This document shows positions 6,758-40,620 of a stretch of DNA of 64,000 nt, piece by piece. A program made the position numbers and the translations under genes. Position 1 is the first letter of the stretch. Each line of letters starts with the position of its first letter. The notes beneath the pieces are model-generated. The model was not told the origin of the DNA and did no database searches. It worked only from the letters and a program-made list of their open reading frames with translations. The stretch lies in the NCBI RefSeq assembly GCF_056746865.1, contig NZ_CM163382.1; one strand, 5' to 3'.

Positions 6758-6805
6758 GTCTGGCCTCCGGACCAGCCTCCGCTGGTCCGATTGAACGCGC
6801 GGATT

Positions 6806-6854: not shown

Positions 6855-6862
6855 TGTCAAGC

Positions 6863-8067: not shown

Positions 8068-8092
8068 GGGGATAGGAGAAGTCGCTTGATAT

Positions 8093-19505: not shown

Positions 19506-20084
19506 ACCGCTAAGAACATGTTCCCGAAAATTGAGATAAACACGTTATGACAGCAACGTAAAATAAAACAGCGTTTTTTAGTCATAATGAACATGTAGAG
19601 TCCGTTTGTTCATACTCTGTGATTATCTCCATACGTTCATCTCTGGCGCTGCCAGATAGCGTTTTCGTTCTTACAGTCAATGCGCACCCGATACTGAATA
19701 TCGGCTTTCTTCCCCCGGGCGGTGAGATGCACTGTGACTAAATTATCACCTTTACTTACCAGCTCACGAAGATTCACCCAGACAACAGGATGCTGCTGAC
19801 TGAAGATCACCTAGTCATCTTTCCAGTGAAGCACCTGTTTCTGGAGATAGTCCCGTTTGACGCTGGCTGCAACAGCCGATGATTCCTGCCCTTCACATCG
19901 TGGAAAACTGACGGTTCTGTTTTTATCAGTAGCCAGTGATGATACACAAATACCGAAGGTGAGCAGAATTGAAGAGAGTGTTTTGTTTATTTACAGAACC
20001 CCATCATGGATAGCTCATTGTATTATTACTTTACATTTTAACAACATAAAATATCACTTTCAGAAGCAACAATCACATAACTTC

Positions 20085-21197: not shown

Positions 21198-21212
21198 GGT
21201 GTCCTTATTTTT

Positions 21213-22043: not shown

Positions 22044-22258
22044 CTTCTTTTCCTCTCGAATGTAAGATGGTAATTAACTTTACTACTTAAATTTAAATGT
22101 GAAAGATGTTTTTGTTATTTTATGGTTAACCCATTGTTTTATATGCTTTTAATTTGATATTTAGATCATTTTTTAGCTTTAAGGATCTGTGTCACATAAA
22201 TTTAATGTTTAGTATGTAAATTTAATAATCATCTTTTTAACCGATGGAAGAGAGACTC

Positions 22259-23326
22259 ATGTCAAAACTGGTTCTGGAACAGGTGACCAAAACCTTCGGC
22301 GAATTCTATGCCGCCAGAGAAATCTCGTTCTGCGCCGAAGAGGGGGAGTTCGTGACCCTGCTTGGGCCGAGCGGCTGCGGTAAAACCACCCTGCTGAAAA
22401 TGATCGGCGGTTTTCACCAGCCGGACAGCGGACGCATTCTTATTGGCGATAAAACGGTCAACGCCCTGCCGCCAGAAAAGCGCAATACCGCCATGTGTTT
22501 CCAGTCCTATGCGCTGTTTCCGCACCTCAACGTGGCACACAACATCTGCTTCGGCCTGAAGCAGAAAAAAGTCGCTATCAGTGAACAGCAGGACCGGCTG
22601 ACGGAGGCGCTGAAGCAGGTGGGGCTGGAGAGCCAGCGCCTGAAAATGCCCGCCCAGCTCTCCGGCGGCCAGCAGCAGCGCGTGGCGCTGGCGCGGGCGA
22701 TGATCACCCGCCCGGACGTGATCCTGTTCGACGAACCTCTCTCCAACCTTGATGCCAAGCTGCGCGAAAGCGTGCGTTTTGAAATCAAGGAACTCCAGCG
22801 GCAGTATCAGCTCACCTCGATCTACGTCACACACGACCAGGCGGAAGCGCTGGCGATGTCGGATAAAATTGTGGTGCTGAACGCCGGTAATGTTGAGCAA
22901 ATAGGCAAACCGGAAGAGATTTACTACCGTCCGGCCAACCGCTTTGTGGCCGACTTTATCGGCGCGGCCAATATCGACACCGCGCAGGTCACGCCCTCAG
23001 AGCAGCCGGGCTATTACCGGGTACGCTGTGCCCTCGGCGAGTTTTATGTGCATTCCGTACAGCCGCCACGCACAGAGCACTGCTATATCTGCTGGCGACC
23101 GGAAGATGCGCAGTATGTCAGCCAGCCTCAGGCAGGCAACAACCACTTCTCCCTGACGCTCGACAAAATGGCCTTTATGGGCAACCTCACCGAAGCCTGG
23201 GGCCACAACGACAGCGGGTTATCGGTCCGCTTACAGCTAATTAAAAAGCCGCCCGTCGCCCCCGGCGAGAGTGCCTGCTTCCGTCTGGCGGAAAACGCCA
23301 TCCATTTTCTGGAGCCGGTATCATGA
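22259..23326 (+). CDS. ABC transporter ATP-binding protein (PotA/FbpC/MalK type)
   Basis: Walker [10 protein letters not shown], signature [14 protein letters not shown], Walker [12 protein letters not shown]. Confidence 0.85.
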
Positions 23327-24189
23327 AAAACTGGCGCAATGATGCGGTCGCCTGGCTGCTGATGCTCAGCGGGCTGGGCACGATCCTACTACTGATGGGA
23401 TCGACGTTTTATGTGGTGATCGTCCAGAGCCTGGGCTGGTTCAACATCGAAGGCGACAGCAATTTCTCGCTGGAATACTGGCGCAATATGTTGCAGGACG
23501 AAGTGTTGCAAAGCGCCCTGTTCTACTCAGTGAAAGTGTCACTGCTGGGGGCGTTCGGCTCGGTGATTTTCGCCTATCCGCTGGCGCTGTGGCTGCGTAA
23601 ACCGATGGCCTATAAAGAGGGCATTATCGCGGTGCTGCGTGCGCCGATGTTTATCCCCGGTCTGGTGGCGGCGTTTCTGTTCGTCAATATCGTCGCTTAT
23701 CACGGCATTATCAACGAACTGCTGCTGGCGCTGGGGATTATCAGCGAGCCGCTGCGGATGCAGAACGATGACTTCGGCTGGGGCGTGGTTATCCTGCAAA
23801 TCTGGAAAAACCTGCCCTTCGCCCTGATCCTCGTCGGCGGCGCAGTCAACGCCATCCGTAACGACGTGCTGGACGCCGCCAGCAATCTCGGTGCCAGCCG
23901 CTGGCGCAGTTTTACCGGCGTGGTGGTGCCGCTGACGCTGCCCGCCGTGCAGGTGACGCTGATTCTGGTATTTATCGGCGCGCTGGGCGACTTCGCCTTC
24001 TTCTCGGTGGCCGGGCCACGCAACACCTACTCGCTGGCGCGGCTGATGCAGGCCACCGCCATGGAGTACGGCGAGTGGAATAACGCGGCGGTGATTGCGG
24101 TGATCATTATGGTCACGGCGGCCATCTGCACGTTGCTGATTGCCACACTGATTACCCCGTTCGCCACCCGCAAAGGAGAGGTCAAATGA
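23323..24189 (+). CDS. ABC transporter permease
   Basis: 288-aa polytopic membrane protein; start overlaps ATPase stop. Confidence 0.8.
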   Translation: MKNWRNDAVAWLLMLSGLGTILLLMGSTFYVVIVQSLGWFNIEGDSNFSLEYWRNMLQDEVLQSALFYSVKVSLLGAFGSVIFAYPLALWLRKPMAYKEGIIAVLRAPMFIPGLVAAFLFVNIVAYHGIINELLLALGIISEPLRMQNDDFGWGVVILQIWKNLPFALILVGGAVNAIRNDVLDAASNLGASRWRSFTGVVVPLTLPAVQVTLILVFIGALGDFAFFSVAGPRNTYSLARLMQATAMEYGEWNNAAVIAVIIMVTAAICTLLIATLITPFATRKGEVK

Positions 24190-25022
24190 GCCACACTGCC
24201 AACGGTCGCCGGGTGGTGACGATTTCGCTGATCTTCTTCGTGGTCGCTAATCTGATCTGGCTGGGTATGCCGTTCGGCATGGCGATCCTCTGGTCGCTGG
24301 TTGACCCGGCCCATCCGTGGAGCTACCCGGATATCTTCCCGCCGGTGCTGTCGTTCAGCCGCTGGCTGCTGGTATGGGAAAAGACTTCGCTTTCCGAGGC
24401 GCTGTTCAACAGCTACACCATTGCGCCTGCGGTAGCGGTCGCCAGCCTGCTGCTGTCGCTACCCACCGCGTATGCCTTCGGGCGCATGACCTTTCGCGGT
24501 AAGGCGGTGGCGGAGATGCTGACGCTGATCCCGCTGGTGATGCCGGGGATGCTGATCGGGATTTTTTTCAGCGCCATGCTGATCAACCTCAATATCGACA
24601 ACGCGTTTATCAGCATTGTTATCGGCCATACGGTACTGACGCTACCCTATTCGATCCGCATTATGTCTGCGGGGTTTAAGTCTGTGCCGCAGGATCTGAT
24701 CGACGCCAGCCGCGACCTGGGCTCCGGCGCGTGGGACACCTTCTGCAATGCCTATCTGCCGCTGTTAAAACCGAGCTTCCTGGCGGCGCTGATTTTTTGT
24801 CTGGTGCGAAGCCTGGAAGAGTTCGGCATCTCATACGTGCTGGGCGCGCCGGACTTTATCACCGTTCCGACCATTCTTTACTCTTTCCTTGGCTACTCCT
24901 TCGTCCGCCCGGATGCGGCGGTGGTGTCGATGATTCTGGTGATCCCCAATGTCATCCTGATGGTCATCATTGAGAAGTTGCTGAAGGGGAACTATCTGTC
25001 GCAATCCACGGGAAAAGCCTGA
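24186..25022 (+). CDS. ABC transporter permease
   Basis: 278-aa polytopic membrane protein; overlapping start. Confidence 0.8.
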   Translation: MSHTANGRRVVTISLIFFVVANLIWLGMPFGMAILWSLVDPAHPWSYPDIFPPVLSFSRWLLVWEKTSLSEALFNSYTIAPAVAVASLLLSLPTAYAFGRMTFRGKAVAEMLTLIPLVMPGMLIGIFFSAMLINLNIDNAFISIVIGHTVLTLPYSIRIMSAGFKSVPQDLIDASRDLGSGAWDTFCNAYLPLLKPSFLAALIFCLVRSLEEFGISYVLGAPDFITVPTILYSFLGYSFVRPDAAVVSMILVIPNVILMVIIEKLLKGNYLSQSTGKA

Positions 25023-25043
25023 CCTTTTACAGGAGATAATGTG

Positions 25044-26120
25044 ATGAAAAAAACAGTGATGATTCTGGCGGGCGGCCTGCTGTGCAGCTCGCTGGCAACG
25101 GCGGCGGATAGCCCCGACCTGATTGCCCAAGCGAAAAAAGAGGGCAGCGTGACCTTTAACGTCTGGTACTTACAGCCGCAGTGGCGCAGCTTTGTGAAGG
25201 ATTTTGAGCAGCAGTACGGCGTTAAGGTGCGCATCCCGGAAGGGAATATCGACGGAAACGTGAACAAGTTGCTGGCAGAAGCGGGGAAAAAAAGGGGTAA
25301 AATAGATGTTATCGCCTTGTCTGTTGCGCAACTGCCAGTGGCAATGGGAGCGAAAGCGCTGGCGAAGGTGGACGATTTGCCGGGCTATGGCGACGCCATT
25401 CACCAGATTCAGAACGTTGACACCCAGGGTTATGCCGTGGCGTTCTGGGGCAACCAGACCGGATTTGCTTACGACCCGCAGCAGATGGGTGACCGGGCGC
25501 TGCCACAAACGCTGGAGCAGTTGCAGAGCTTTATCGACGCCAACCCGAAAAAGTTCGGCTATAACGACCCGAACAACGGCGGCGCGGGGGAAGCCTTTAT
25601 CCAGCGCATCGTCACTACTCAGGGCGACACGTTTAACAGCGAAGCGGAGAGCGTTGACCCGGCAGTGGTGAAAAACTGGCAGAAAGGCTGGCAGTGGTTT
25701 GCTGCTAATAAGGACAAAATTACCCGCACGGCCTCCGGTGCTGATAGTCTGACACGCCTGAATGACGGCGAGCTGATGCTGACACCATCCTGGGAAGACC
25801 ATCTTGTCGGACTACAAAAAACCGGGGCTATCAATTCGCGGCTGAAATTTTACGTACCGGAGTTTGGCATGCCTGGCGGCGGTAACATCGCTGCCATTGC
25901 CGCCAACAGCCCACATCCGGCGGCATCACGCTTATTCCTCAACTGGCTGATTCAGCCTGAAACGCAACATGCACTGAGTAAAGTCTTCGGCTCCACGCCG
26001 ATGAACAAACAGCTCCGTCCGGATCTGAATGAGATCCCGGAGCCCACGGTGGAGTTTTATGGCAAAGCGTACAGTACACAGCTCAAAAAAGATTTCGTTC
26101 GTGAGGTCATGATGCAGTAA
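25044..26120 (+). CDS. ABC transporter periplasmic substrate-binding protein
   Basis: Signal peptide MKKTVMILAGGLLCSSLATA; size and position fit a solute-binding protein; substrate unknown. Confidence 0.7.
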   Translation: MKKTVMILAGGLLCSSLATAADSPDLIAQAKKEGSVTFNVWYLQPQWRSFVKDFEQQYGVKVRIPEGNIDGNVNKLLAEAGKKRGKIDVIALSVAQLPVAMGAKALAKVDDLPGYGDAIHQIQNVDTQGYAVAFWGNQTGFAYDPQQMGDRALPQTLEQLQSFIDANPKKFGYNDPNNGGAGEAFIQRIVTTQGDTFNSEAESVDPAVVKNWQKGWQWFAANKDKITRTASGADSLTRLNDGELMLTPSWEDHLVGLQKTGAINSRLKFYVPEFGMPGGGNIAAIAANSPHPAASRLFLNWLIQPETQHALSKVFGSTPMNKQLRPDLNEIPEPTVEFYGKAYSTQLKKDFVREVMMQ

Positions 26121-26215
26121 GCTTCATTTCGCGCACAGCCATCCCCCTGAAATCTGGCTGACTGTTATTTCGCAACAGTTATTGAGTAAATCTTTAACCT
26201 GTTAACAGAGGGTTT

Positions 26216-26740
26216 ATGAAACGTAAACTTATTGCCTTTGTGATTCTGGCTACATCATCCTGTGGATATGCAGCCACCAAAGATGTAACAATGAATCTTG
26301 TTGATAGTGACGGAAAAGAGCGAAATATTGGTAAAATAACCATCCAGAAGACACCCTACGGGCTGCTGTTCACCCCTGATCTTCACTCCTTACCCGCCGG
26401 CATTCATGGTTTTCATGTACATGAAAACGCAAGTTGTGCTCCTGCCCTGAAAGATGGAAAAACTGTCGCTGCTTTATCTGCAGGTGGTCACTTTGACCCG
26501 GAAAAAACAGGGAAGCATCTCGGTCCATGGTCTCCTGATGGCCACCTGGGTGATCTCCCTGCGCTTTATGTCACTCATGACGGAAAAGCAACCTACCCGG
26601 TGCTTGCGCCAAGACTATCTGAATTAAAGGAGCTCGATGGCCGTTCGCTAATGCTCCACGCAGGAGGTGATAATCATGATGACCATCCTGAACCTCTAGG
26701 TGGCGGTGGTGCAAGAATTGCCTGTGGTATCATCCCATAA
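26216..26740 (+). CDS. sodC: periplasmic Cu/Zn superoxide dismutase
   Basis: Signal peptide plus Cu/Zn-SOD motifs [12 protein letters not shown] and [12 protein letters not shown]. Confidence 0.85.
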
Positions 26741-27093: not shown

Positions 27094-27907
27094 TTTCGAT
27101 ACCTCAATGCTTACAACAGAAAAGTATACTTTTACGAAGTTCGCCTTTGCAGGACTATATAAAGTTATCACTGGATGCAAGAGCCGGAAATCCTGTATAT
27201 CAGGATCAACTTTGTAATTCAATAACATATTATCCAGTGAAAAAGTAAGTATATTTAAGCTGGGGAAGGAGAAGGGGGACTTGATTTGATATTTTCATCA
27301 ATAATATTATTTTTCCTCCTCCATTATTCATTCAGACCTGGTTCCGGGCGTAATTCCGATTTCTCTGTTGAAGCGATGCATTTATATTTAAATATTCACC
27401 TGTCATTGAATTTTATTTGAAATAGGAGAAAATCTCCTCCTGTACTACAGATAACCCGGAATGTTCCTCGAAAGAAAATTCTGGCGCAGAATTCACGCCC
27501 GGTTCTGTTCAACATCATGCAGGATAACGATACCGAAACGTTAAACTCTGGCAATTCTCGTGTTATACACAGGCAGGAGTGATTACTACGGTAAGAATTG
27601 CTGAAAAGGGGAGAACACTGAAGGCCTTATTCGCGAAGAATAAAGGAGACATTTCATGTAAATTATTATCAGAGATAACCTTCTCCAGGCGCTTTTGTTC
27701 GCTTCCTGAATTGCTACCTGATACATATTTACGGGATGCCAGCCTGGTGACTATAACTCCGAAAAGACCGATTATTGTATTGCGTGCATCCGGCATGTTT
27801 ACAATGTACGCTGGTATCTAACGGAGTCTGACACAGATGCACGCAGGTGTATATTTTAACGTAATTATCCGGAAAGAACAGTATATTTTAATGCGGGAGT
27901 TGCATGA

Positions 27908-28800
<893 letters not shown>

Positions 28801-29334
28801 ATTGAGCACTGCAGTGTTCAGAGCACAAAGAAGAAAAAAGATGTGTGCGAATGCCTGTAATGTGTTAAAAGAATGTTCCGCGTTTCCGGTACGCTTTTCG
28901 TAACTAACAATGCAGGGTGACGTAACGCTGGTTGTGCCGGAAACGCGTCCCTCCCCCTATCTTTCCTGTTTGGATTTGCCCCTATATTTCTGGATTATCC
29001 GACAAAACCGGCGTGAAGTATTACTCTCGTCGCCCAGCACCATAAGGATAACGCCCATAAAATCATGAAACTTTTCTTCCAGATTGGATACAATCAGGCC
29101 GAAACGGTGATGAATATTATCCAAATCTGATGGTTCGTAGCGTTTTCAGCCCCCAGATTCTGAGTTGCCTGTAGGGATGATTTCAATTCCCGATTTGTCT
29201 ATCGCATAGAGAAAAAGAATTTCATTTCTGTTCACCAGAACCCATGTAACCCACTCCAATTCGTTATTTATCTCACTGATTGCCCTTCATTTATCTCATT
29301 GATGCACCGAAAGGTAAAACTGCCATCCGGTGCA

Positions 29335-30264
29335 TCACGCTCGATGCATCAAATCCTGATAAATCCCCGTCAGTATTCCTTGTAAGCTAAATTCTCTTTT
29401 TATCCACTGAGTGACTTGACCGCTTGCCGAATGCCTGGTTGCCAACAGCATTCGTGAATCCTGACGTGGGTTGCGGATCTGCCGTGTCACCAGCAATGAC
29501 TTTTCCATCGCTTCACGCACCATATAGTCTGGCAGAAAACCGATTCCCTCCCCCAGGATCTGGCACTGAAGCTTAGTATTAAAGTCGGGAACCAGAATCG
29601 ACTCTTGCCCGTGTAACAGCCAGCCGACTTTTTTGTTTATAGTGTTTGCAGTGTCTTCCACCATGATGTTCGGGTACAGACGTAACTGACTCTCAGAAAT
29701 GGGCTCAGGAATAAACGCCAGCGGATGATCCGGAGAAATCGCGAACAACCAACGAATCATGCCGATTTCAATGTAATCAATTCCACCACCGTCCAGTAAC
29801 GTATCGGGCGCGCCAATGGCGATATCAGCCTGGTTATTAATGAGTGAATCCCAGACGCCATTATACACCTCTGTAGTAATAGCTATCTGGCAGGTTGGAA
29901 AGTGTTCCCTGAGCACTTGCAGAAGCCGAGCTGTATGCTGAGGGGTATACAACAGTTGATTAATACAAATGCGCACCCGGGATTTAATTCCCTGAGCGAT
30001 GGCATCAACTCTACGTATGATGGAGTGGTAATCGTTGAGCAGGTCAGTTGCTTTGCAAAAAAGGTAGTGCCCGGGCTCGGTCAGCTCAATGCTACGGGTA
30101 GTTCGGGTAAAAAGCACCACGTCAAGCCCCATTTCCATACGCTTGATAGTGTAACTAATTGCCGATGTGGTTAAGCCCAGTTCCTTCGCCGCCTTGCTGA
30201 AACTTCTATAGCGGGCAGCCATAGTAAATGCCAGTAAGTTTTCTTCCGTAAATATTGAATTCAT
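29335..30264 (-). CDS. LysR-family transcriptional regulator (AllS/YahB-like)
   Basis: LysR HTH (FTMAARYRSFSKAAKELGLTTSAISYTIKRME) and substrate-binding domain; divergent from the yah-like operon. Confidence 0.75.
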   Translation of the reverse strand: MNSIFTEENLLAFTMAARYRSFSKAAKELGLTTSAISYTIKRMEMGLDVVLFTRTTRSIELTEPGHYLFCKATDLLNDYHSIIRRVDAIAQGIKSRVRICINQLLYTPQHTARLLQVLREHFPTCQIAITTEVYNGVWDSLINNQADIAIGAPDTLLDGGGIDYIEIGMIRWLFAISPDHPLAFIPEPISESQLRLYPNIMVEDTANTINKKVGWLLHGQESILVPDFNTKLQCQILGEGIGFLPDYMVREAMEKSLLVTRQIRNPRQDSRMLLATRHSASGQVTQWIKREFSLQGILTGIYQDLMHRA

Positions 30265-30651
30265 CTTTCTTTCCTCTGGCGACAATACACATACACAACA
30301 TGATGATTGTTGAATGTATTTGTAATTCTTATAACCGACAATCAGTTTTGAAAAAATTAACACCGTATTTACATTTAATTTGAAGGAAATCACACATCTG
30401 AATTTTAATTACAGGCAGCTATCCGTGCTGCAGACCACCTTTATTTATATGACTGCGGATTAATGGCTAAAATATCCCCAGCTATAATAGAAATATTGCA
30501 CTATATCACACTCTCTTATTATTGTTAATTTTGTTTCAATAATTCATGGTCTAATGATGAGTAAATTTTAAATGGATGGTGCTCTATGCATTCTGTTGCT
30601 ATTCTTGGCTTGTTATATTTGTAAAATCTTAAAAAGAGCAGGAGATCGATT

Positions 30652-31257
30652 ATGTCCAATAAAGAACTCATTACAGAATTTCTGCTGGCGGCAGAACAAG
30701 GTAATTCCGATGGATTAAAATCATGCCTTGATAAAAAGGTTGATATTAATGCGACTAACCGCGAGGGGCGTACTGCAATTATTATTGCCAGTCTGAATAA
30801 ACATTATGACTGCGTTTCTTTATTGATTTCCGCAGGTGCTGATATTAATAAACAAGATCAAACTTGTTTTAATCCCTTCCTGATTGGCTGCCTGAATAAT
30901 GATTTAACACTGTTGCGTACGGTATTACCGGCTAACCCCGACCTTAATTGCCTAACCCGTTTTGGCGGTGTTGGTATTACACCTGCCTGCGAAAAAGGCC
31001 ATGTCGAGATTGTACGTGAATTGCTGATGCGTACTGATATCAATGTCAACCATACTAATTTTGTTGGCTGGACGCCGCTCCTAGAGGCCATCGTGCTGAA
31101 TGACGGCGGTGAAAAGCAGCAGGAGATCGTCAAACTGTTGCTTGAGCATGGCGCAAACCCGCACATGACGGATAAATACGGTAAAACCCCGCTGGAGCTG
31201 GCGCGAGAAAAAGGCTACCACAAAATTGCCGAGTTGCTGATTTCGGCTGGAGCCTGA
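30652..31257 (+). CDS. ankyrin-repeat protein (YahD-like)
   Basis: 201 aa with ankyrin repeats (GRTAIIIASLNKHYDCVSLLISAGADIN; GWTPLLEAI; GKTPLELAREKGYHKIAELLISAGA). Confidence 0.8.
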   Translation: MSNKELITEFLLAAEQGNSDGLKSCLDKKVDINATNREGRTAIIIASLNKHYDCVSLLISAGADINKQDQTCFNPFLIGCLNNDLTLLRTVLPANPDLNCLTRFGGVGITPACEKGHVEIVRELLMRTDINVNHTNFVGWTPLLEAIVLNDGGEKQQEIVKLLLEHGANPHMTDKYGKTPLELAREKGYHKIAELLISAGA

Positions 31258-31342
31258 CAACAGGAGCACGATTATCGCTATATTATCACGGCAATCTTTT
31301 CGGGCACTAACCGCAGACTGCGCGTTTCTCACTTTTCGGGGA

Positions 31343-32191
31343 ATGGGCCAGGTTGAACAGGTTTTTTCCCATGCGGTAAATCTGTTAATACCTGAACAGC
31401 AGCGACTGCTGACGTTACTGAGTGAGGATTGTGATAACGCACCTAACAGTTGTCGTTTAGCACTGACACATTATGAAGACCTTTTTCACCCCGGTGAACA
31501 GGTCAATTTTAGCGGGTCTGGAATAACTGTTGGAAATGATAAATGGATAGAAATAACCGGTTGTCAGATGTGGCGAATACCACGGTGGACATCTGATTCA
31601 GCAAGCCTTGCCAAAGTCGGCTGGCAGCATTGGGAAGAGTTTATCCGCCAACAACTAAGAAGCAACGACACATTATTTCTGTACCAGGGTGACAATCCAT
31701 TTTATCAGGAAATTTCTCGCCAATTACTCAACCGCCGAAAAAATTTGCTGAAGGCGTTGTGTACAGGAGAAAACATCACTGCGGCAGTCAACCAGTTAAT
31801 TGGTCTTGGAATAGGGCTGACGCCATCATCGGATGATTATTTAGTAGGTTTAAGCACTATTTTATTTATTCAAGGACATCCACTAAGGAAGTATAGATAC
31901 GATTTCTTAGCAGCATTACAACTTGCAGGAAATAACATAACGCTTCTCAGCAAAATAACGTTAGAGGAAGCATTTAATCAGCGTTATCGGGAAAGAGTCG
32001 GACGGCTACTGAACCAATTTATTACTGAGCCACAACCCATTTCTACGCAATATGTTACTGACATAAAAAATATAGGCTCAAGTTCTGGATGCGACATGCT
32101 GTATGGCATGGCGGATGCCTGCGCCCTGAGCCACAGGTCCGGAGGTAATTATGTCAATCAGGATAGTTGTAAAAAAAAACACGTATTTTGA
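31343..32191 (+). CDS. DUF2877-like protein (YahE/YlbF-like)
   Basis: 282 aa; size and position match the yahE/ylbF partner of FdrA-like genes; called by synteny and recollection. Confidence 0.5.
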   Translation: MGQVEQVFSHAVNLLIPEQQRLLTLLSEDCDNAPNSCRLALTHYEDLFHPGEQVNFSGSGITVGNDKWIEITGCQMWRIPRWTSDSASLAKVGWQHWEEFIRQQLRSNDTLFLYQGDNPFYQEISRQLLNRRKNLLKALCTGENITAAVNQLIGLGIGLTPSSDDYLVGLSTILFIQGHPLRKYRYDFLAALQLAGNNITLLSKITLEEAFNQRYRERVGRLLNQFITEPQPISTQYVTDIKNIGSSSGCDMLYGMADACALSHRSGGNYVNQDSCKKKHVF

Positions 32192-33698
32192 TTCTGTTTC
32201 ACTGATGTCTATCTCCACGCGCGCAAATAAGCTTGATGGAGTTGAGCAGGCATTTGTTGCTATGGCGACAGAGATGAATAAGGGGGTGCTGAAGAATCTC
32301 GGTCTGCTGACCCCTGAGCTGGAAGAGGCGAAAAGTGGCGATCTGATGATTGTCATTAAAGGTACCAGCGAGGAGGCGAACGAGCGGACGCTAATAGCGA
32401 TTGATGAGCTGTTTGCGCATAAAGAACAGGGAGGCCAGCACGAAGCACGCTATGCCACGATTGCCAGTGCGAAGAAGCATGCTCCAGAGAGTAATCTGGC
32501 GGTGATCTCTGTCAATGGCCTGTTTGCTGCTCGTGAAGCTCGTCAGGCACTACAAAATAACCTCAATGTTATGCTGTTTTCTGACAACGTCTCTCTTGAG
32601 GACGAGCTGGAACTCAAGCATCTGGCACATGAAAAAGGGTTGTTGATGATGGGGCCTGATTGTGGAACCGCCATCATTAACGGCGCAGCGTTGTGTTTTG
32701 GCAATGCAGTGCGTCGCGGCAACATCGGAATCATTGGTGCCTCCGGTACGGGTAGCCAGGAGCTGAGCGTACGCATTCACGAATTTGGCGGCGGGATTTC
32801 CCAGCTGATTGGGACAGGTGGACGCGATATGAGTGAAAAAATTGGCGGCCTGATGATGCTTGACGCGATTAGCATGCTGGAGGCCGATCCACAAACTGAG
32901 ATCATTACGCTTATATCCAAACCTCCTGCACCAGCGGTAGCCCGTAAGGTGCTGGAACGTGCGCGCACCTGTCACAAGCCTGTGGTGGTGTGTTTCCTCG
33001 GACGTGAGTCCACCCCTGCGGATGAAGAAGGCCTACAGTTTGCCCGCGGTACTAAAGAGGCTGCCTTGAAAGCGGTACTGTTGACTGGTGTGAAAAAAGA
33101 GAGTCTGGATTTGCATCCGCTCAACTGGCAGCTGATTGAAGAGGTTCGCTCCCGTCTGACTCCACAACAAAAGTATATCCGTGGCCTGTTCTGTGGTGGC
33201 ACGTTATGCGATGAAGCGATGTTTACTGCCATGGAAAAACTCTCGGATGTGTATAGCAATATTCACCCGAATCCGGCGTTCCGCCTTACAGATCTCAACC
33301 GTAGCGTGGCGCATACCTTCCTCGATTTCGGCGATGATTATTTTACCAACGGCAAACCACATCCGATGATCGATCCCACCAATCGCATTACCCGGCTCTT
33401 GCAGGAAGCACAGGATCCTGAAGTTGGCGTGATCGTGATGGACTTCATTCTTGGATTTGGATCACATGAAGATCCGGTTGGAGTGATGCTGGATACAATT
33501 GTTGAAGCCAAAGAAATTGCTGCCGCAGACGGTCGCCCGCTTGAGATCCTCGGCTATGTGCTGGGAACCGACCTTGATACACCGTCGCTGAAAAAACAGT
33601 GTCAGATGTTGACCGATGCCGGGGTTATTTGGGCAAGCAGTAGCACCAACACCGGATTACTGGCACGTGAATTTATATTTAAAGGGGAGGAAGGCTGA
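32151..33698 (+). CDS. FdrA/YahF-like CoA-ligase-fold protein
   Basis: 515 aa, MSIRIVVKKNTYFDSVSLMSIS... typical of FdrA/YahF; RBS GGAGG before ATG. Confidence 0.75.
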   Translation: MSIRIVVKKNTYFDSVSLMSISTRANKLDGVEQAFVAMATEMNKGVLKNLGLLTPELEEAKSGDLMIVIKGTSEEANERTLIAIDELFAHKEQGGQHEARYATIASAKKHAPESNLAVISVNGLFAAREARQALQNNLNVMLFSDNVSLEDELELKHLAHEKGLLMMGPDCGTAIINGAALCFGNAVRRGNIGIIGASGTGSQELSVRIHEFGGGISQLIGTGGRDMSEKIGGLMMLDAISMLEADPQTEIITLISKPPAPAVARKVLERARTCHKPVVVCFLGRESTPADEEGLQFARGTKEAALKAVLLTGVKKESLDLHPLNWQLIEEVRSRLTPQQKYIRGLFCGGTLCDEAMFTAMEKLSDVYSNIHPNPAFRLTDLNRSVAHTFLDFGDDYFTNGKPHPMIDPTNRITRLLQEAQDPEVGVIVMDFILGFGSHEDPVGVMLDTIVEAKEIAAADGRPLEILGYVLGTDLDTPSLKKQCQMLTDAGVIWASSSTNTGLLAREFIFKGEEG

Positions 33699-35116
33699 TG
33701 AGCCAGACACTGTTTAATCAGCCGCTGAACGTTATTAATGTCGGTATCGAAATGTTCAGCGATGACATGAAAAAGCAGAATGTACCGGTAACCCAACTTG
33801 ACTGGACACCGCCAGGCCAAGGAAACATACAAGTGGTAACGGCACTGGACGACATTGCCGCTTCACCACTGGCAGACAAAATTGCAGCTGCTAATCAGCT
33901 GGCGCTGGAACGCATTATCCAGTCGCATCCTGTGCTAATTGGCTATGATCAGGCGATCAACGTCGTGCCGGGTATGACCCGTAACACTATCCTTCACGCC
34001 GGGCCGCCAATCCACTGGGAAAAAATGTGCGGCGCAATGAAGGGCGCAGTAACCGGGGCTCTGGTATTTGAAGGACTGGCGAAAGATCTGGATGATGCCG
34101 CCGAACTAGCTGCTTCAGGTGAAATCATCTTCTCTCCGTGCCACGAACATGACTGTGTCGGCTCAATGGCGGGTGTCACGTCTGCATCGATGTTTATGCA
34201 CATCGTCGAGAACAAAACCTATGGAAACCGCGCATATACCAATATGAGCGAGCAGATGGCAAAGATCCTGCGTATGGGCGCTAACGACCAGAGCGTTATA
34301 GAGCGTCTTAACTGGATGCGAGATGTACTGGGACCTATGTTGCGCGATGCTATGAAGCTGGCGGGCGAAATCGATCTGCACTTGATGTTAGCGCAGGCGC
34401 TGCATATGGGCGATGAGTGCCATAACCGCAACAACGCCGGGACGGCGCTGCTGATTCAGACGCTGACGCCGTGGATTATTCAGACTGGCTACCCTGTTGA
34501 GCAGCAGCGTGAGGTGTTCGAGTTTGTCCTCAGTAGTGATTACTTCTCAGGACCAACATGGATGGCAATGTGTAAAGCCGCAATGGACGCTGCGCACGGC
34601 ATTGAATACAGCACCGTGGTGACAACGATGGCACGCAATGGTGTTGAGTTCGGTCTTCGTATTAGCGGTTTGCCGGGCAAGTGGTTTACCGGTCCGGCGC
34701 AGCAGGTGATTGGGCCGATGTTTGCGGGCTATAAGCTAGAGGATTCCGGACGTGATATCGGTGATAGTGCAATTACCGAAACCTACGGCGTTGGCGGTTT
34801 CGCTATGGCGACGGCACCAGCTATTGTGTCACTGGTGGGCGGAACAGTTGAGGAAGCTATTGATTTCTCACGTAAAATGAGAGAAATCACTCTCGGAGAA
34901 AACCCCAACGTCACCATTCCCCTGCTTGGTTTTATGGGCGTACCGACCGCTATCGATATTACGCGTGTAGGCAGTACAGGCATTCTGCCGGTAATTAACA
35001 CAGCCATTGCGCACAAAGACGCAGGGATCGGCATGATCGGCGCAGGAATTGTTCACCCGCCGTTCACTTGTTTTGAAAAGGCGATCCTCAACTGGCGTGA
35101 CCACTACTGCCAATAA
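33698..35116 (+). CDS. DUF1116-like protein (YahG/YlbE-like)
   Basis: 472 aa; start overlaps FdrA-like stop; size and synteny match yahG. Confidence 0.6.
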   Translation: MSQTLFNQPLNVINVGIEMFSDDMKKQNVPVTQLDWTPPGQGNIQVVTALDDIAASPLADKIAAANQLALERIIQSHPVLIGYDQAINVVPGMTRNTILHAGPPIHWEKMCGAMKGAVTGALVFEGLAKDLDDAAELAASGEIIFSPCHEHDCVGSMAGVTSASMFMHIVENKTYGNRAYTNMSEQMAKILRMGANDQSVIERLNWMRDVLGPMLRDAMKLAGEIDLHLMLAQALHMGDECHNRNNAGTALLIQTLTPWIIQTGYPVEQQREVFEFVLSSDYFSGPTWMAMCKAAMDAAHGIEYSTVVTTMARNGVEFGLRISGLPGKWFTGPAQQVIGPMFAGYKLEDSGRDIGDSAITETYGVGGFAMATAPAIVSLVGGTVEEAIDFSRKMREITLGENPNVTIPLLGFMGVPTAIDITRVGSTGILPVINTAIAHKDAGIGMIGAGIVHPPFTCFEKAILNWRDHYCQ

Positions 35117-35228
35117 CAATAACCGGGGCTAACGCAGTTAGCCCCACAGTAGCGGAAAACGTTGTTTACCTTCAGGGCTGGGCGATCTCCATGATCGCAA
35201 ACGATGCTTAACCTGTTAAGGAGATTCC

Positions 35229-36779
35229 ATGAACAGCATAAAACTAGAATGGAAACGTGGTGACTGGGCGGCTTACTTTGGACTGATGACCAACAATCTG
35301 ACTAACCTGCTGACAATGATGGGTCTGCTAATTTTTGTCGTCGGAATCCCTACTGAAATTGTCTATGGACGCATTGCGCCTGCCTTTGGTCTTGCAGTGC
35401 TGGCGGCCAGTGTCTGCTACTCCTGGTTTGGTCTACAGATGGTGAAGAAAACCGGTCGTAGCGATGTAACGGCGCTGCCGTCTGGACCGAGCGCACCCTC
35501 AATCTTTACCGTGACATTCCTGGTGCTGATGCCGGTTTATCAGCAAACCAAAGATGCCAACTTTGCTATTCAGATAGGATTGGTGTGGTGCTTTGTCGAA
35601 GCGTTGATCCTGGTCGGTGGCTCCTTCCTGGGTGAGACTATCCGCAAGATGATCCCGCGTACAGTGCTGCTTTCTTGTCTGTCCGGACTGGGGTTATTAC
35701 TGCTGGCAATGAACCCGATGCTGCAAGCGTTCGAAGCGCCGACAGTTTCTTTCATCGTCCTGTTATTGATCTTCATTAACTGGTTCGGTAAGAAGCCGAT
35801 TTTTCCCCATATTCCTACCGGTTTGCTGTTGCTGATTGCTGGTACGTCCCTAGCGTGGATATCCGGTTTACAAAGCCCGGAAGACATTAAAGCGTCGATG
35901 TCTTCCTTCGGCTTCAACCCGCCGGAAATTCATGTAAGGAGCTTCCTGCAAGGTTTGCCGCACGCTCTGCCATATCTGGCTTCTGCAGTTCCTTTGGGCC
36001 TGGCTAACTACATTTTTGACCTCGAGAACATTGAAAGTGCGCACGCGGCTGGTGATGAATACAACACCCGTAAGGTCATGATGGCGAACGGCTTTGCCTC
36101 CATGCTCGGTTGCATGCTGGGTAATCCGTTCCCGGTAACCGTATATGTTGGGCATGCAGGCTGGAAAGCTATGGGCGCTAGTATCTGCTATACCCTCGCA
36201 TCAGGCATCACTATGTTTCTGGTGCCATTGTTTGGGTTGGGCGCGTTTATGCTCGCCATTATTCCCATGACTGCTATAGTGCCAATTCTGGTTTTTATCG
36301 GTGTGGTAACCGCCAATCAGGTGGTGCGAGAAACTCCTAAAGTCGAGGTTCCCGTCATTTTCATCTGTCTGTTCCCATGGGTCGCCAACTGGGCATTGAC
36401 CATCGTTAACAGCGTGATGGGCGCAGCCGGAACATCCGCTGAGAAACTTGGTAGCGACCTGTTGCACAGCAAAGGCGTCTATTACGATGGACTGATGCAT
36501 CTGGGAAGCGGTGCACCGCTGGCCAGCATGCTGTGGGGATGCATTGCTATCTTTGCCATTATGAATAAGCCGCTGCGCGGGGCGATAGCTGCATCCTTTG
36601 GAGCACTGTTATCGCTGTTTGGCGTGATTCACTCCCCAGCGGTTGGCTTTGCGGAAGGCGGCTCGATTGTGTTTGTTGTGGCCTACCTGATGATGCTTGC
36701 TATGTTTGCCCTCAAGCATGTTATTGATAGCCGTGAAACAGTGGCTGCGTCTGAGCAGGAAGAGACTAAAACGACCTGA
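35229..36779 (+). CDS. putative permease (possibly nucleobase/AzgA-like; family uncertain)
   Basis: 516-aa polytopic membrane protein inside the yah-like operon. Confidence 0.5.
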   Translation: MNSIKLEWKRGDWAAYFGLMTNNLTNLLTMMGLLIFVVGIPTEIVYGRIAPAFGLAVLAASVCYSWFGLQMVKKTGRSDVTALPSGPSAPSIFTVTFLVLMPVYQQTKDANFAIQIGLVWCFVEALILVGGSFLGETIRKMIPRTVLLSCLSGLGLLLLAMNPMLQAFEAPTVSFIVLLLIFINWFGKKPIFPHIPTGLLLLIAGTSLAWISGLQSPEDIKASMSSFGFNPPEIHVRSFLQGLPHALPYLASAVPLGLANYIFDLENIESAHAAGDEYNTRKVMMANGFASMLGCMLGNPFPVTVYVGHAGWKAMGASICYTLASGITMFLVPLFGLGAFMLAIIPMTAIVPILVFIGVVTANQVVRETPKVEVPVIFICLFPWVANWALTIVNSVMGAAGTSAEKLGSDLLHSKGVYYDGLMHLGSGAPLASMLWGCIAIFAIMNKPLRGAIAASFGALLSLFGVIHSPAVGFAEGGSIVFVVAYLMMLAMFALKHVIDSRETVAASEQEETKTT

Positions 36780-36805
36780 ATAGCCTGCAAACGGAAGATA
36801 ATTCT

Positions 36806-37768
36806 ATGAAAGAACTTGTGGTCGTTGCCATTGGTGGCAACAGCATTATCAAAGATAACGCCAGCCAGTCGATTGAGCATCAGGCGGAGGCGGTGAAGGC
36901 CGTCGCCGATACGGTTCTGGAAATGCTGGCTTCCGATTACGACATTGTGCTGACCCACGGCAACGGGCCGCAGGTCGGTCTGGATTTACGCCGCGCGGAG
37001 ATAGCCCACGAGCGCGAAGGGCTACCCTTAACGCCGCTGGCGAACTGTGTGGCGGATACGCAAGGCGGCATTGGCTATCTGATCCAGCAGGCGCTGAACA
37101 ACCGGCTGGCGCCTCTCGGCGAGAAAAAAGCCGTCACCGTGGTGACTCAGGTGGAAGTGGATAAAAACGATCCGGGGTTTGTCCATCCCACCAAGCCCAT
37201 CGGTGCATTCTTTAGTGAAAACCAGCGTGATGAACTACAAAAGGCAAACCCTGACTGGCGTTTTGTTGAAGATGCCGGACGGGGCTATCGCCGCGTGGTC
37301 GCCTCGCCGGAACCGAAACGTATTGTCGAAGCACCTGCCATTAAGACTCTGATCCAGCAAGGCTTTGTGGTGATTGGCGCGGGCGGCGGTGGCATTCCGG
37401 TGGTGCGTACTGACGCAGGGGATTACCAAAGCGTGGACGCGGTTATCGACAAAGATCTCTCTAGCGCGCTACTGGCTCGCGAAATTCACGCCGACATTCT
37501 GGTGATCACCACCGGCGTGGAAAAAGTGAGTATTCATTTTGGGAAACCCAACCAGCATGCACTGGATACAGTGGATGTCCTAACGATGGCCCGTTACATG
37601 CAGGAGGGTCACTTCCCGCCTGGGAGTATGTTACCGAAGATTCTTGCCAGTCTGGAGTTCCTGGAACGTGGAGGTAAAAGAGTGATTATCACCACGCCTG
37701 AATGCCTGTCCGCGGCACTGCGTGGCGAAACAGGCACCCATATTATCCACTCCCAAGAGGAGACGTAA
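36806..37768 (+). CDS. carbamate kinase (YahI/ArcC-like)
   Basis: MKELVVVAIGGNSI...LTHGNGPQVG... amino-acid-kinase family carbamate kinase motifs. Confidence 0.85.
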   Translation: MKELVVVAIGGNSIIKDNASQSIEHQAEAVKAVADTVLEMLASDYDIVLTHGNGPQVGLDLRRAEIAHEREGLPLTPLANCVADTQGGIGYLIQQALNNRLAPLGEKKAVTVVTQVEVDKNDPGFVHPTKPIGAFFSENQRDELQKANPDWRFVEDAGRGYRRVVASPEPKRIVEAPAIKTLIQQGFVVIGAGGGGIPVVRTDAGDYQSVDAVIDKDLSSALLAREIHADILVITTGVEKVSIHFGKPNQHALDTVDVLTMARYMQEGHFPPGSMLPKILASLEFLERGGKRVIITTPECLSAALRGETGTHIIHSQEET

Positions 37769-38866
37769 ATTAAGGAAAGCGACCGCCGCCGTGAATTTTT
37801 AATGTTCATTGCAGATTATCGTGGGCTGGAAATGATAACGGTTGGGGAGTTATTGTTTAGTTGCTAAAACAGAACGATAACCAACCCCAACCGTTCTCAA
37901 TTTCGAATACTATCTTTTCCATTTATCTCTGGATAGGCTTTGACGTCGTCCCTACTGAGTAAAATCCCCCTCATCATCCACCTAAAACCGATTGAAAACG
38001 GTCATTACTCTTGTGGCAAACAGGCTAAAGCCGTTCACGATGCTTCACTTCGCACCTTATCGTAATGAACAATACTGGTATTTCCAGTTCAGTTACGCCT
38101 ACCCGTCTACCGCATTCTTTGCCCTAACTGCGGCATAGTTCGGGATTATATCAGCTGGCTAAAGCCTTATGCTCATCAGACCACATGACTCATTGAGCAT
38201 GTTGAGGCGTTACTCAAAATCTTGCCGATTAAACATATTTCGTAATTTCTTACCCTGCACTAACATATCATCAATACTATCGACAAACGTCAGTTGCAAA
38301 TAGAGGTCACAGGGTCTGATTGATGTACTGTCAAGGCCGGGTCATGAAAGAGTTTGCCCTGTTCAAAGCTCATCGTTACGCACCGTCGTAGCCGATGCGG
38401 ATACTCATCAATCCTCTGGATAGGTGAGGTGCGTAGTAGAGAAGCTCGGTCGTTTTTCGTTAATCTGAATCAGTACTGTCAACATATTCAAGTCGTTAAT
38501 ATGGATATGAATACCTCCTTTGACCTAGAGGTACAGATGCACTACCCCCCAAGCTGTCAACGACGGATGAAAAGTGGCTCTTCCGCAACCTGGATGGAGA
38601 TTTTCATGCCAGTGGACTCATGACCCTCTGCCTGAGTAGTTCAAATCCGGCTCGACCATACATCTGGCCTTTCAGCATTTTTAGCCAATTTACATGACTT
38701 TCGACCACCCCCCATTATTCCAGCGACTGCTGATTGCCTCACATATAGCCGCAGCATCAGCTACCATCCTTGCAGCCACGCGCCGAAGTTACCACTTTCT
38801 CGTTGCTCTTTTAACCACTCCCTCCATGGGTCCAGAAGTCCTCGCTCTGGAGGCCGGGTTGACATT

Positions 38867-39730
38867 TCAGGGAATGTTCCTGAACACACCCAGAGACTGA
38901 CTGTCACACGTGATAAGCCTGTAATACGGGATATTTCCCCTGAACCCACATCCCTTGTTATGTAGTGCCATAACCTCTGTCCAACGCTGATGCCGTTTTT
39001 GGCGGGTTTGCTGTTTAAGGCGTTCCGGACGACGGAGCGATGCTACAGGCACAGACAGTACTGGCTTAGGTGATTTCTTTGGTGACAACCCACTGGCAAC
39101 AAGACGTATCAGAGGCATCTGTCTGTACATCATTCGTTCAGGCGCATCGCCAATATTTTTTAGCAGGTGCCATCGATCAGCTATCTGTCTGGCCTGAGGT
39201 GCACCTTCACGTGCTGCTGTCGCATAGACTCCGCCACGGTCACGTGAGACAACCTGTATTTCCGGATATTTTCTGAACCAGGTCGCCAGCGTACTCTGAT
39301 CGCAACCGGGAAGCAGGACGAGGGGACGGTGAGTATCAAGATTGACAATTAACGTGCCGTAATGGTGGCCCCGATGCCACGCCCACTCATCAATACCGAC
39401 ATGAGGCGCGCCCGACTGTTTCGTCTCCGGGGTATTAATAACCCTGCGAAGAAGAGTATCAGCACTGCAACGGAGCCCCACTGCCGTTGCTGCCTGTTTC
39501 CCGGCCTCACCTCCGGCTATTAATCCCAGTTGATGTTGTAAATTTTGTAACACCTGTGAAGAATGCTGGGAGTGAACCGGCGAAGGGGGCAAGCGACCCG
39601 GCAAAAATTTTACGTGAACAAGCCGGGTTACGGCAGTACCAGTGGCGGACGGAAAATACAAGCCATAGCGTCTGCCCTGAGCAGGGTAGATGCTGTATCC
39701 GGCGCCGACGATAACTATGAACAGAGTCAC
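38867..39730 (-). pseudogene. ISL3-family-like transposase fragment
   Basis: ...VGIDEWAWHRGHHYGTLIVNLDTHRPLVLLPGCDQSTLATWF...ADRWHLLKN... resembles a DDE_Tnp_ISL3 core; gene incomplete and abutted by IS1. Confidence 0.45.
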
Positions 39731-39907
39731 TACGCTTAAAGCATTCAGGACTTGTGCTGTTTTGCGTTTTCCGTGGAGATGGAGGGTTATACCGTCAGAG
39801 CTAATAATTTGTCGACTGCATCTCCATCCGCAAGGTAACTGTAGAAGTGTCTGGTGATGCTGCCAACTTACTGATTTAGTGTATGATGGTGTTTTTGAGG
39901 TGCTCCA

Positions 39908-40183
39908 GTGGCTTCTGTTTCTATCAGCTGTCCCTCCTGTTCAGCTACTGACGGGGTGGTGCGTAACGGCAAAAGCACCGCCGGACATCAGCGCTATCTC
40001 TGCTCTCACTGCCGTAAAACATGGCAACTGCAGTTCACTTACACCGCTTCTCAACCCGGTACGCACCAGAAAATCATTGATATGGCCATGAATGGCGTTG
40101 GATGCCGGGCAACAGCCCGCATTATGGGCGTTGGCCTCAACACGATTTTACGTCACTTAAAAAACTCAGGCCGCAGTCGGTAA
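39908..40183 (+). CDS. insA: IS1 InsA
   Basis: [43 protein letters not shown]... Confidence 0.9.
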
Positions 40184-40605
40184 CCTCGCGCATACAGCCG
40201 GGCAGTGACGTCATCGTCTGCGCGGAAATGGACGAACAGTGGGGCTATGTCGGGGCTAAATCGCGCCAGCGCTGGCTGTTTTACGCGTATGACAGGCTCC
40301 GGAAGACGGTTGTTGCGCACGTATTCGGTGAACGCACTATGGCGACGCTGGGGCGTCTTATGAGCCTGCTGTCACCCTTTGACGTGGTGATATGGATGAC
40401 GGATGGCTGGCCGCTGTATGAATCCCGCCTAAAGGGAAAGCTGCACGTAATCAGCAAGCGATATACGCAGCGAATTGAGCGGCATAACCTGAATCTGAGG
40501 CAGCACCTGGCACGGCTGGGACGGAAGTCGCTGTCGTTTTCAAAATCGGTGGAGCTGCATGACAAAGTCATCAGGCATTATCTGAACATAAAACACTATC
40601 AATAA
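40102..40605 (+). CDS. insB: IS1 InsB frame (expressed as InsAB by frameshift)
   Basis: ...[44 protein letters not shown]... Confidence 0.85.
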
Positions 40606-40620
40606 GTTGGAGTCATTACC

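Follow-up and report, generated by a model that had tools for sequence, protein, structure and literature searches.

A mobile copy of a permease-containing yah carbamate-kinase operon, truncated in yahJ, in Escherichia coli

The window analysed here (64,000 nucleotides of contig NZ_CM163382.1) contains a block of seven genes at positions 29335-37768. All seven open reading frames that a preliminary description had read from the sequence, for a LysR regulator, an ankyrin protein, DUF2877, FdrA and DUF1116 proteins, a permease and a carbamate kinase, were confirmed together with their domains. The divergent yahB-like gene (29335..30264, minus strand) encodes a 309-aa LysR-type regulator (Pfam HTH_1 and LysR_substrate) with amino acid identities of 85% to K-12 YahB, 40% to AllS and 87% to the Citrobacter orthologue; this frame is more likely to be the gene than a 352-aa ORF starting with GTG, because the PGAP annotation and the orthologues agree on it. 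The remaining genes lie on the plus strand, beginning with a yahD-like ankyrin-repeat gene as the first gene of the operon (30652..31257; 201 aa; Pfam Ank_2/Ank/Ank_4), whose product is 72% identical to K-12 YahD and 90-92% to its Citrobacter counterparts. It is followed by a yahE-like gene for a DUF2877/AllH-family protein (31343..32191; 282 aa; PF11392 AllH, formerly DUF2877, E 1.2e-22), the least conserved of the set with 53% identity to K-12 YahE, and by a yahF-like FdrA/AllF-family gene (32151..33698; 515 aa; CoA_binding and Ligase_CoA; NCBIfam FdrA, 490 bits), with 83% identity to K-12 YahF and 38% to AllF. The yahG-like DUF1116/AllG-family gene (33698..35116; 472 aa; PF06545 AllG, formerly DUF1116, E 6e-90) encodes a protein 90% identical to K-12 YahG, 46% to AllG and 95-96% to the Citrobacter proteins (omega 0.03). 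A gene for a 516-aa permease (35229..36779) and a yahI-like carbamate kinase gene (36806..37768; 320 aa; AA_kinase; NCBIfam carbamate kinase PRK12352, 625 bits; 93% identity to K-12 YahI, 38% to AllK) complete the block.

All seven frames are of full length compared with their orthologues and free of frameshifts, and omega values of 0.03-0.19 revealed purifying selection across all block genes; since the copies in E. coli are near-identical, little can be read from this intactness about selection inside the species. A scan of the block for promoters and terminators returned nothing above chance, so the operon structure is read only from synteny and from how the genes are spaced.

Base-by-base comparison with K-12 and Citrobacter identified the first 11 codons of yahJ, twin-arginine motif included, directly after the kinase gene (37769..37802, plus strand). 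The start codon of this remnant is ATT in the block and ATG in Citrobacter, the homology to both K-12 and Citrobacter stops at 37798-37802, and the truncating junction is identical in plasmid and chromosomal contexts. This truncation at the kinase end was not part of the preliminary description. A published list has YahJ among the predicted Tat substrates without known function (PMC7549933). Its Tat motif is conserved across genera, and it is an AtzC/cytosine-deaminase-like amidohydrolase, closest among solved structures to AtzC (E 1.9e-43) and cytosine deaminase. The block is a truncated yah-type operon, which has the set LysR / Ank-(AllH)-AllF-AllG-permease-carbamate kinase and lacks the terminal yahJ.

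On the left, an IS3-family transposase remnant lies at 28019..28649 (plus strand; PGAP annotation of an identical chromosome, 10685-11315 there, offset 17334). The right flank (37803..39849) consists of about 0.75-1 kb of DNA that travels with the block, followed by a degenerate ISEc38-like ISL3 element. Similarity to ISEc38 is 92-94% from about 38790 onward, an ORF at 38867-39730 matches Pfam DDE_Tnp_ISL3, and PGAP annotates the transposase pseudogene (about 38604-39808, minus strand) as 'ISL3 family transposase, frameshifted'. An IS1 copy (39850..40620, plus strand; IS1A according to PGAP and matched by the IS1A of pAPEC-O2-211A) bounds the segment common to ColV plasmids. pAPEC-O2-211A itself carries a Tn3-family insertion at 37815-37819, a stretch of 5 bp that both matches share.

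Synteny comparison showed that the block is colinear with yahB-yahI of E. coli K-12 at 69-89% nucleotide identity, the orthologues in yahB-yahJ (b0316-b0324) having the same order, yahB / yahD-yahE-yahF-yahG-...-yahI. The interval between yahG and yahI measures 1,689 bp in the block versus 421 bp in K-12. As in the preliminary description, the K-12 alignment placed the permease at the position of yahH and found yahC missing; the K-12 locus has yahC, a REP/BIME array and yahJ, whereas the block has the permease, 11 codons of yahJ and no yahC. What is called 'yahH' in K-12 consists of four REP/BIME units in tandem, and a tblastn search of the K-12 yah locus with the permease returned no trace of it. 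No native yah locus of E. coli has the permease. Among 87 loci from other bacteria none contains yahC, which is specific to E. coli, and its absence is therefore the ancestral state. Because 'yahH' is a REP/BIME array, the core yah locus of E. coli, found in about 93% of the genomes, is a derived, degenerate form that has lost its cognate permease. The K-12 cluster is still counted in the y-ome (PMC11551758).

The order AllG-like gene, permease, carbamate kinase was found in 74 of the 87 loci, which include Citrobacter, Enterobacter, Providencia, Aeromonas and Janthinobacterium; in Neobacillus and Brevibacillus the permease lies within the same cluster in a different gene order. The AllG-like gene is inside the locus in 83 cases, yahJ follows the kinase in 71, and the ankyrin gene accompanies the permease in nearly all loci, across phyla. 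These results showed that the permease is ancestral and belongs to the conserved core of the chromosomal yah operon across many genera; it is not added cargo, and the view of it as an unusual insertion had to be abandoned.

The permease has 14 transmembrane helices in two inverted repeats (7+7), with short beta-strands in TM3 and TM10, which assigns it to the UraA fold (SLC4/SLC23/SLC26). A family could not be assigned by sequence models as the preliminary description had envisaged: the protein matched none in Pfam or NCBIfam even at E<=10, a profile built from 28 family members matched no NCS2 or AzgA chain in the PDB, and ten distant relatives gave no transporter match in Pfam. Membership of NCS2/NAT (Pfam Xan_ur_permease) or AzgA was rejected on the failure of these family models, and membership of the SulP/SLC26 anion transporters on the lack of a Sulfate_transp match and of a C-terminal STAS domain, the C-terminus coming right after TM14. 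Identities of 11-16% place the protein at equal distance from UraA/UapA/SVCT1 (NCS2/SLC23) and from SLC26Dg/BicA (SulP/SLC26), so a substrate class is not transferable from either group, and the database name "xanthine permease" is unsupported, since no Pfam, NCBIfam or PDB sequence model matches.

The closest relatives of the block are the yah operons of the Citrobacter freundii complex (C. youngae, C. braakii, C. werkmanii), whose proteins are 80-96% identical to those of the block and which have a conserved chromosomal context, with pga genes upstream, rcnA/rcnR-like genes downstream and an intact yahJ. Colinearity extends over window positions 29303-37802 at about 85% nucleotide identity, permease and intergenic regions included, and on the left the homology stops at about 29303-29335. 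The divergence of about 15% rules out the sampled Citrobacter species as donor, and the block matches no sampled species as its source. Sliding-window identity further revealed an Escherichia-like recombination patch in yahI (36806-37540), which matches K-12 at 91-96% and Citrobacter at 73-89% nucleotide identity; beyond about 37540 the sequence is nearer to Citrobacter again.

Copies of the block at >=99% identity occur in 141 of 5,426 E. coli genomes, mostly from poultry, at 107 plasmid and 45 chromosomal places, on ColV/IncF plasmids and on chromosomal islands; 78 of 86 plasmid carriers are conjugative. IS debris, resistance genes and virulence genes surround it. The block is accessory and mobile in E. 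coli, and its patchy distribution, its near-identical copies on different replicons and the IS elements at the homology breakpoints are those of IS-bounded mobile cargo; no intact composite transposon, flanked by target-site duplications and ending in matching IS copies, was demonstrated at the block. The earlier proposal of mobile cargo among IS elements thus holds, with IS remnants on both sides, except for the permease as its unusual addition. The proposal had been staked on two points: the permease did prove normal in chromosomal yah clusters, outside E. coli, whereas a conserved chromosomal context of the block was not found in E. coli.

The identity, boundaries, distribution and intactness of the block follow directly from these comparisons, and it is very probable that it represents a horizontally acquired copy of a complete-type yah operon. 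Its source was, again very probably, the chromosome of a not yet sampled enterobacterial relative of the C. freundii complex, out of which IS activity cut a segment reaching from immediately past the stop codon of yahB (a minus-strand gene whose 3' end points left) to 11 codons into yahJ. Recombination with an Escherichia yahI came later, and ColV/IncF plasmids and mosaic chromosomal islands now spread the block through E. coli, mostly poultry-associated strains.

The relation to the allantoin genes bears on function. The allFGH-allK set (fdrA-ylbE-ylbF-ybcF) encodes an oxamic transcarbamylase and a catabolic carbamate kinase of anaerobic allantoin degradation (PMC11326118, PMC9843812); the carbamoyl-transfer role, which the preliminary description called proposed, was demonstrated for these paralogues in 2024, when AllFGH was shown to be the oxamic transcarbamylase, the activity reportedly requiring all three of allF, allG and allH (PMC11326118). 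Like allFGH-allK, the block unites the three protein families (FdrA-type CoA_binding/Ligase_CoA, PF06545 and PF11392) with a carbamate kinase in one operon, and its LysR protein is related to AllS. The yah-type cluster proved paralogous to that set, as suggested earlier, with 38-46% identity; at 38%, 46% and 38% for F, G and the kinase, and in a context without allB/C/D/E, the genes are not orthologues. The gene order is H-F-G in the block and F-G-H in the all cluster, and the yah type adds the ankyrin protein, the 7+7-fold permease and the Tat-exported amidohydrolase. YahE is dispensable in some genera: the operons of Enterobacter, Leclercia and Lelliottia lack the gene and are otherwise complete. 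BLASTP of YahE versus AllH gave no match. The undetectable similarity of YahE to AllH and its absence from many operons speak against an All-like route, given the need for three genes in oxamic transcarbamylase.

A second AllF/AllG/carbamate-kinase cluster of ExPEC, found in the tkt1 island of APEC O1, in GR29 of BEN2908 and on pAPEC-O2-211A-ColV, is likewise accessory and horizontally spread in the same strain types and even on the same plasmids. It belongs to a different lineage (48% identity to both YahG and YahI). Its partners are a hydrolase of the isochorismatase/RutB type and an NCS1 permease resembling CodB, and it has no ankyrin gene, YahJ or 7+7-fold permease.

By paralogy to AllFGH/AllK, we tentatively propose a route from a ureide through carbamoyl phosphate to ATP, which we rate slightly below an even chance. 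The divergent LysR protein would control the operon, and the UraA/SLC26-fold permease, a putative importer, would bring in a ureide (an acyl-urea or N-carbamoyl compound), made in the periplasm by Tat-exported YahJ in complete operons. Phosphorolysis of its carbamoyl group to carbamoyl phosphate would fall to YahF and YahG, joined by YahE in operons that have it, and the carbamate kinase YahI would convert the product to ATP, NH3 and CO2; the ankyrin protein YahD would be a conserved accessory. The mobile copy without yahJ could run the full route only if no periplasmic step is needed or if a chromosomal yahJ of the host supplies it. At 38-46% identity to AllF/G/K, the chemistry of the yah proteins could differ from acyl-urea transcarbamoylation. 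Taken as a whole, the evolutionary account and this biochemical route together appear moderately probable.

Several other readings were weighed against this one. Quite unlikely, in our estimate, is that the block and the core locus of E. coli each lack a part that the other has and complement each other, the core locus keeping YahJ without a permease and the block giving a permease and fresh cytoplasmic enzymes, so that acquisition would re-activate a pathway cryptic in ordinary E. coli, from periplasmic deamination or hydrolysis through ureide uptake and carbamoyl phosphate to ATP and NH3. If true, this would give poultry-associated strains a nitrogen-rich, probably urate- or pyrimidine-derived compound of the avian gut, and would account for the failure so far to assign functions to the yah genes of K-12. 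Conversely, the block might be an inert operon fragment that spreads only by hitch-hiking with selected neighbouring genes of the ColV virulence region or island. The truncated yahJ, the debris and the resistance and virulence genes all around, the silence of the literature searched and the >=99% identity of all copies, which implies recent spread with little time for decay, are in line with this, but seven intact frames and the retention of the block on plasmids and chromosomes despite many surrounding rearrangements make it unlikely.

Two further alternatives concern the substrate. If YahEFG were another oxamic transcarbamylase, the block would be a redundant second oxalurate/allantoin module whose permease imports oxalurate or allantoin-derived ureides or exports oxamate. 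We find this improbable: the similarity to AllF/G/K is low and that of YahE to AllH undetectable, allFGHK is already present in most E. coli, and the yah operon always brings the ankyrin protein, the permease and the periplasmic AtzC/CodA-like amidohydrolase, none of which occurs in the all regulon. Equally improbable is that the permease transports a nucleobase (xanthine, or adenine/guanine/hypoxanthine) and that the cluster directly degrades the imported purine or pyrimidine base. The source names 'xanthine permease' and 'AGZA family', the fold common to UraA, UapA and AZG, and a Brevibacillus cluster with a PucR-type regulator, an NCS1 transporter and a CDA-fold deaminase favour it.

Rather than a new kind of system, the block is a mobile form of the yah carbamate-kinase operon, itself uncharacterised. 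Two different AllF/AllG/carbamate-kinase modules can occur on ColV-type plasmids, which suggests, without proving it, selection for ureide catabolism in birds. The yah cluster is among the blocks of E. coli K-12 that have persistently escaped functional description; that its K-12 version is without the cognate transporter offers a concrete reason why screens in K-12 may have been uninformative. The versions that are complete in Citrobacter, Enterobacter, Providencia and even Bacillota, or nearly complete on APEC ColV plasmids, are better material for de-orphaning the pathway. The analysis also flags a widespread 7+7-fold transporter family, of some 2,700 clusters when grouped at 50% identity, whose name is unsupported and for which Pfam and NCBIfam have no model.

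The region from 29335 to 37768 of the window contains all seven ORFs recognized in the preliminary description, and the domains of six of them were confirmed by Pfam and NCBIfam. Named after their orthologs in Escherichia coli K-12, these six are yahB, encoding a LysR regulator on the minus strand (29335–30264; the 352-aa GTG version of this ORF is probably over-extended), yahD, encoding an ankyrin-repeat protein (30652–31257), yahE, encoding a PF11392 AllH (formerly DUF2877) protein (31343–32191), yahF, encoding an FdrA/AllF-type protein (32151–33698), yahG, encoding a PF06545 AllG (formerly DUF1116) protein (33698–35116), and yahI, encoding a carbamate kinase (36806–37768). The seventh, the 516-aa permease ORF (35229–36779), had no match in Pfam or NCBIfam, even with the cutoff relaxed to E ≤ 10, nor among PDB sequences. 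Scans of the operon for promoters and terminators returned as many hits as expected from shuffled sequence. Between yahG and the permease gene lies a 112-nt gap with a 10-bp GC-rich hairpin (35124–35146), which scored as terminator-like on the minus strand only, in a scan that was overall at chance level.

Comparison with the K-12 yah locus (yahB, yahC / yahD, yahE, yahF, yahG, 'yahH', yahI, yahJ) revealed that the two are colinear, with nucleotide identities of 74% (yahB), 69% (yahD/E), 79% (yahF/G), and 89% (yahI), which bears out the proposed mirroring of the E. coli region. K-12 has yahC, whereas the block lacks it, and the gap between yahG and yahI is 1,689 bp in the window versus 421 bp in K-12. 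The reading of 'yahH' as a permease remnant was ruled out, since tblastn detected no trace of the permease in the K-12 locus and the K-12 gap is made up of four tandem 93-bp REP/BIME units. This composition also implies that 'yahH' is not a gene, in agreement with the y-ome paper, where yahH is described as 'filled with REP23 sites' (PMC11551758). Likewise, a blastn search in 'distant' mode found no diverged native permease in E. coli, returning only copies at least 99% identical.

The permease had been taken for an extra gene "carried" by the yah cluster. Homologs of the 516-aa protein with 64–95% identity occur across Enterobacterales, Aeromonas, Pasteurellaceae, Betaproteobacteria, and Bacillota. 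We viewed the gene neighborhoods in Enterobacter, Brevibacillus, Janthinobacterium, Avibacterium, and one Citrobacter-like assembly, and carried out a tblastn census of 87 yah-type loci. The results showed that the exact order AllF–AllG–permease–carbamate kinase is present in 74 of the 87 loci, with an AllG-like gene within the same locus in 83, a YahJ ortholog 3′ of the kinase in 71, and the ankyrin gene in almost all, while yahC was found in none of the 87. The census thus shows that the E. coli core locus is the derived state, having lost the permease and gained yahC, which inverts the proposed relationship. Judged from these gene orders, the permease is a normal, ancestral part of the yah operon, and the block is a further case of a known but functionally unsolved operon type.

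Variants of this operon were also observed. Operons of Enterobacter, Leclercia, Lelliottia, and Silvania (L004, L005, L023, L026–L029, and others) are otherwise complete but have no DUF2877/AllH gene, and the spacing between the ankyrin and AllF-like genes in such operons is only ~100 nt. Three Neobacillus/Bacillus loci (L086, L088, and L090) carry two tandem permease paralogs with 53–54% and 68–69% identity to the window protein. L086 and L088 encode two YahJ-like amidohydrolases, one at each cluster end; L090 stops earlier, and there the upstream copy alone was detected. The upstream YahJ-like copy of the related Neobacillus locus L087 has no obvious Tat signal.

The window is colinear from 29303 to 37802 with the chromosomal yah locus of Citrobacter youngae and C. 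braakii at ~85% nucleotide identity, and the encoded proteins are 80–96% identical to those of Citrobacter, with omega values of 0.03–0.19 (own NG86 implementation). A single scan of GTDB species representatives yielded no donor, Citrobacter being the best match at 95% amino acid and about 85–90% nucleotide identity; with no closer representative, the donor is presumably unsampled. Homology ends on the left just past the yahB stop codon and on the right within yahJ, after its first 11 codons, and the yahJ start codon is ATT in the window; thus, the mobile copy is a truncated yah operon with yahJ cut. The left flank is an IS3-family fragment, and the right flank consists of ~0.75–1 kb of unassigned DNA, followed by a degenerate ISEc38-like ISL3 element and then IS1. 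When the right junction was searched for inverted repeats marking IS ends, only one short pair turned up (37830–37902). Within yahI, a segment of ~730 bp (36806–37540) shows 91–96% identity to K-12 and 73–89% to Citrobacter, and the final ~260 bp is again nearer to Citrobacter than to K-12. The segment is therefore a recombination patch from an Escherichia yahI, and such a patch in an otherwise Citrobacter-like block implies that the mobile copy once recombined homologously with the yah locus of an Escherichia host.

The permease gene was found in 141 of 5,426 complete E. coli genomes, with all copies at least 99% identical and with 107 plasmid and 45 chromosomal locations. Furthermore, 86 PLSDB plasmids matched, 81 from Escherichia and 5 from Klebsiella; 78 of the 86 are conjugative. 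Together with the IS flanks, these data establish that the block really is mobile cargo within E. coli; hence, the initial observation and its interpretation as mobile cargo stand, but the permease as an addition does not, that gene being an ancestral yah component. Among 40 evenly spaced carrier records, the hosts were birds in 27–28 and humans in 8, as raw counts with no base rate for comparison. Positions 12269–41280 are ~100% identical to a mosaic chromosomal island, e.g., that of strain CFSAN061770. On the plasmid pAPEC-O2-211A-ColV (L001), positions 27732–37819 are contiguous up to a Tn3-family insertion at 37815–37819, after which the same right flank resumes. The insert (L001 20485–26880), ~6.4 kb in length and located just right of the yahJ remnant, contains a Tn3-family transposase gene, a permease gene with an ArsR-type regulator gene, and IS1; the 5-bp overlap of the flanking matches would fit a target-site duplication. 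The shared right flank on plasmid and chromosomal island indicates that the yahJ truncation is older than the spread to both contexts. Upstream of the block, positions 12840–26740 are ~100% identical to cargo of chromosomal islands and encode a 1,291-aa S6/SPATE-type autotransporter, an AbgT-family transporter, a ROK regulator, a glycerophosphodiester phosphodiesterase, a four-gene ABC transporter, and a periplasmic-type sodC product. Abutting the island, positions 1959–10608 carry an ISCR clade Ia transposase fragment, floR, tet(A)/tetR, aph(6)-Id, aph(3″)-Ib, and sul2, and the colinearity with the CFSAN061770 island, which matches otherwise, does not extend to this multidrug-resistance region.

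Pfam (E ≤ 10), NCBIfam, phmmer, and a profile hmmsearch against PDB all failed to place the permease in a family by sequence, and ten remote family members examined as a bridge had no transporter Pfam domain. An exhaustive profile search (E ≤ 0.001) found 2,699 clusters at 50% identity. An AlphaFold2 model was built from a 28-sequence family alignment (pLDDT 84, pTM 0.81; confident). The modeled protein has 14 TM helices, with residues 85–87 and 303–305 as the sole β-strands. Fourteen TM helices with such a short pair of β-strands are a hallmark of the 7+7 UraA fold, which the permease is accordingly predicted to adopt. No test here supports the names 'xanthine permease' and 'AGZA family' given in databases, and a small anion is as plausible a substrate as a nucleobase. 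Two remote relatives (P0207 and P0261) are ~1,100 aa long, their transporter domain being fused to RCC1-repeat domains at the N terminus, an architecture that looks eukaryote-like.

In K-12 YahJ, a twin-arginine motif (SRREFL) occurs together with a hydrophobic stretch and an AxA site, and these Tat features are kept in Citrobacter, Enterobacter, Serratia, Providencia, Proteus, Aeromonas, and others. YahJ is on a list of predicted Tat substrates as a protein without known function, and in a mouse model of ExPEC, deletion of yahJ brought a mild competitive disadvantage (CI 0.70; PMC7549933). Its closest solved relatives are the N-isopropylammelide isopropylaminohydrolase AtzC (E 1.9e-43) and cytosine deaminase. 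In 2024, AllF–AllG–AllH was shown to be the oxamic transcarbamylase (OXTCase), converting oxalurate and Pi to carbamoyl phosphate and oxamate, and AllK (YbcF) to be the catabolic carbamate kinase (PMC11326118, PMC9843812). The window proteins share 38% (F), 46% (G), and 38% (kinase) identity with these All proteins, and a likeness of YahE to the H subunit AllH was not detectable by BLAST. By paralogy and operon logic, YahJ in complete operons may carry out a periplasmic step, after which the permease would import a ureide. Its phosphorolysis to carbamoyl phosphate would fall to YahFG, with or without YahE, and YahI would form ATP. Enterobacter, Leclercia, and Lelliottia have operons without YahE, which departs from the three-gene requirement reported for OXTCase. 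Of the 5,426 E. coli genomes, 5,042 have yahJ. The core locus, which lacks the permease, and the mobile block, which lacks yahJ, might complement each other reciprocally, which we consider unlikely. The block is mainly of practical value, since it explains what the K-12 locus is missing and indicates in which systems the pathway could better be de-orphaned.

Literature searches on yah genes, DUF1116/DUF2877, and ColV carbamate kinase yielded no functional study of this cluster; the BEN2908 and tkt1 papers deal with the other AllF/AllG cluster. This second, distinct AllF/AllG/carbamate-kinase cluster is located on pAPEC-O2-211A-ColV (L001 1–5026) and in the APEC O1 tkt1 island. It includes genes for a CodB-like NCS1 permease and for a LysR protein of its own, and shows 48% identity to the window YahG and YahI. 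Since pAPEC-O2-211A-ColV bears both clusters, some APEC plasmids carry two different modules of this type.
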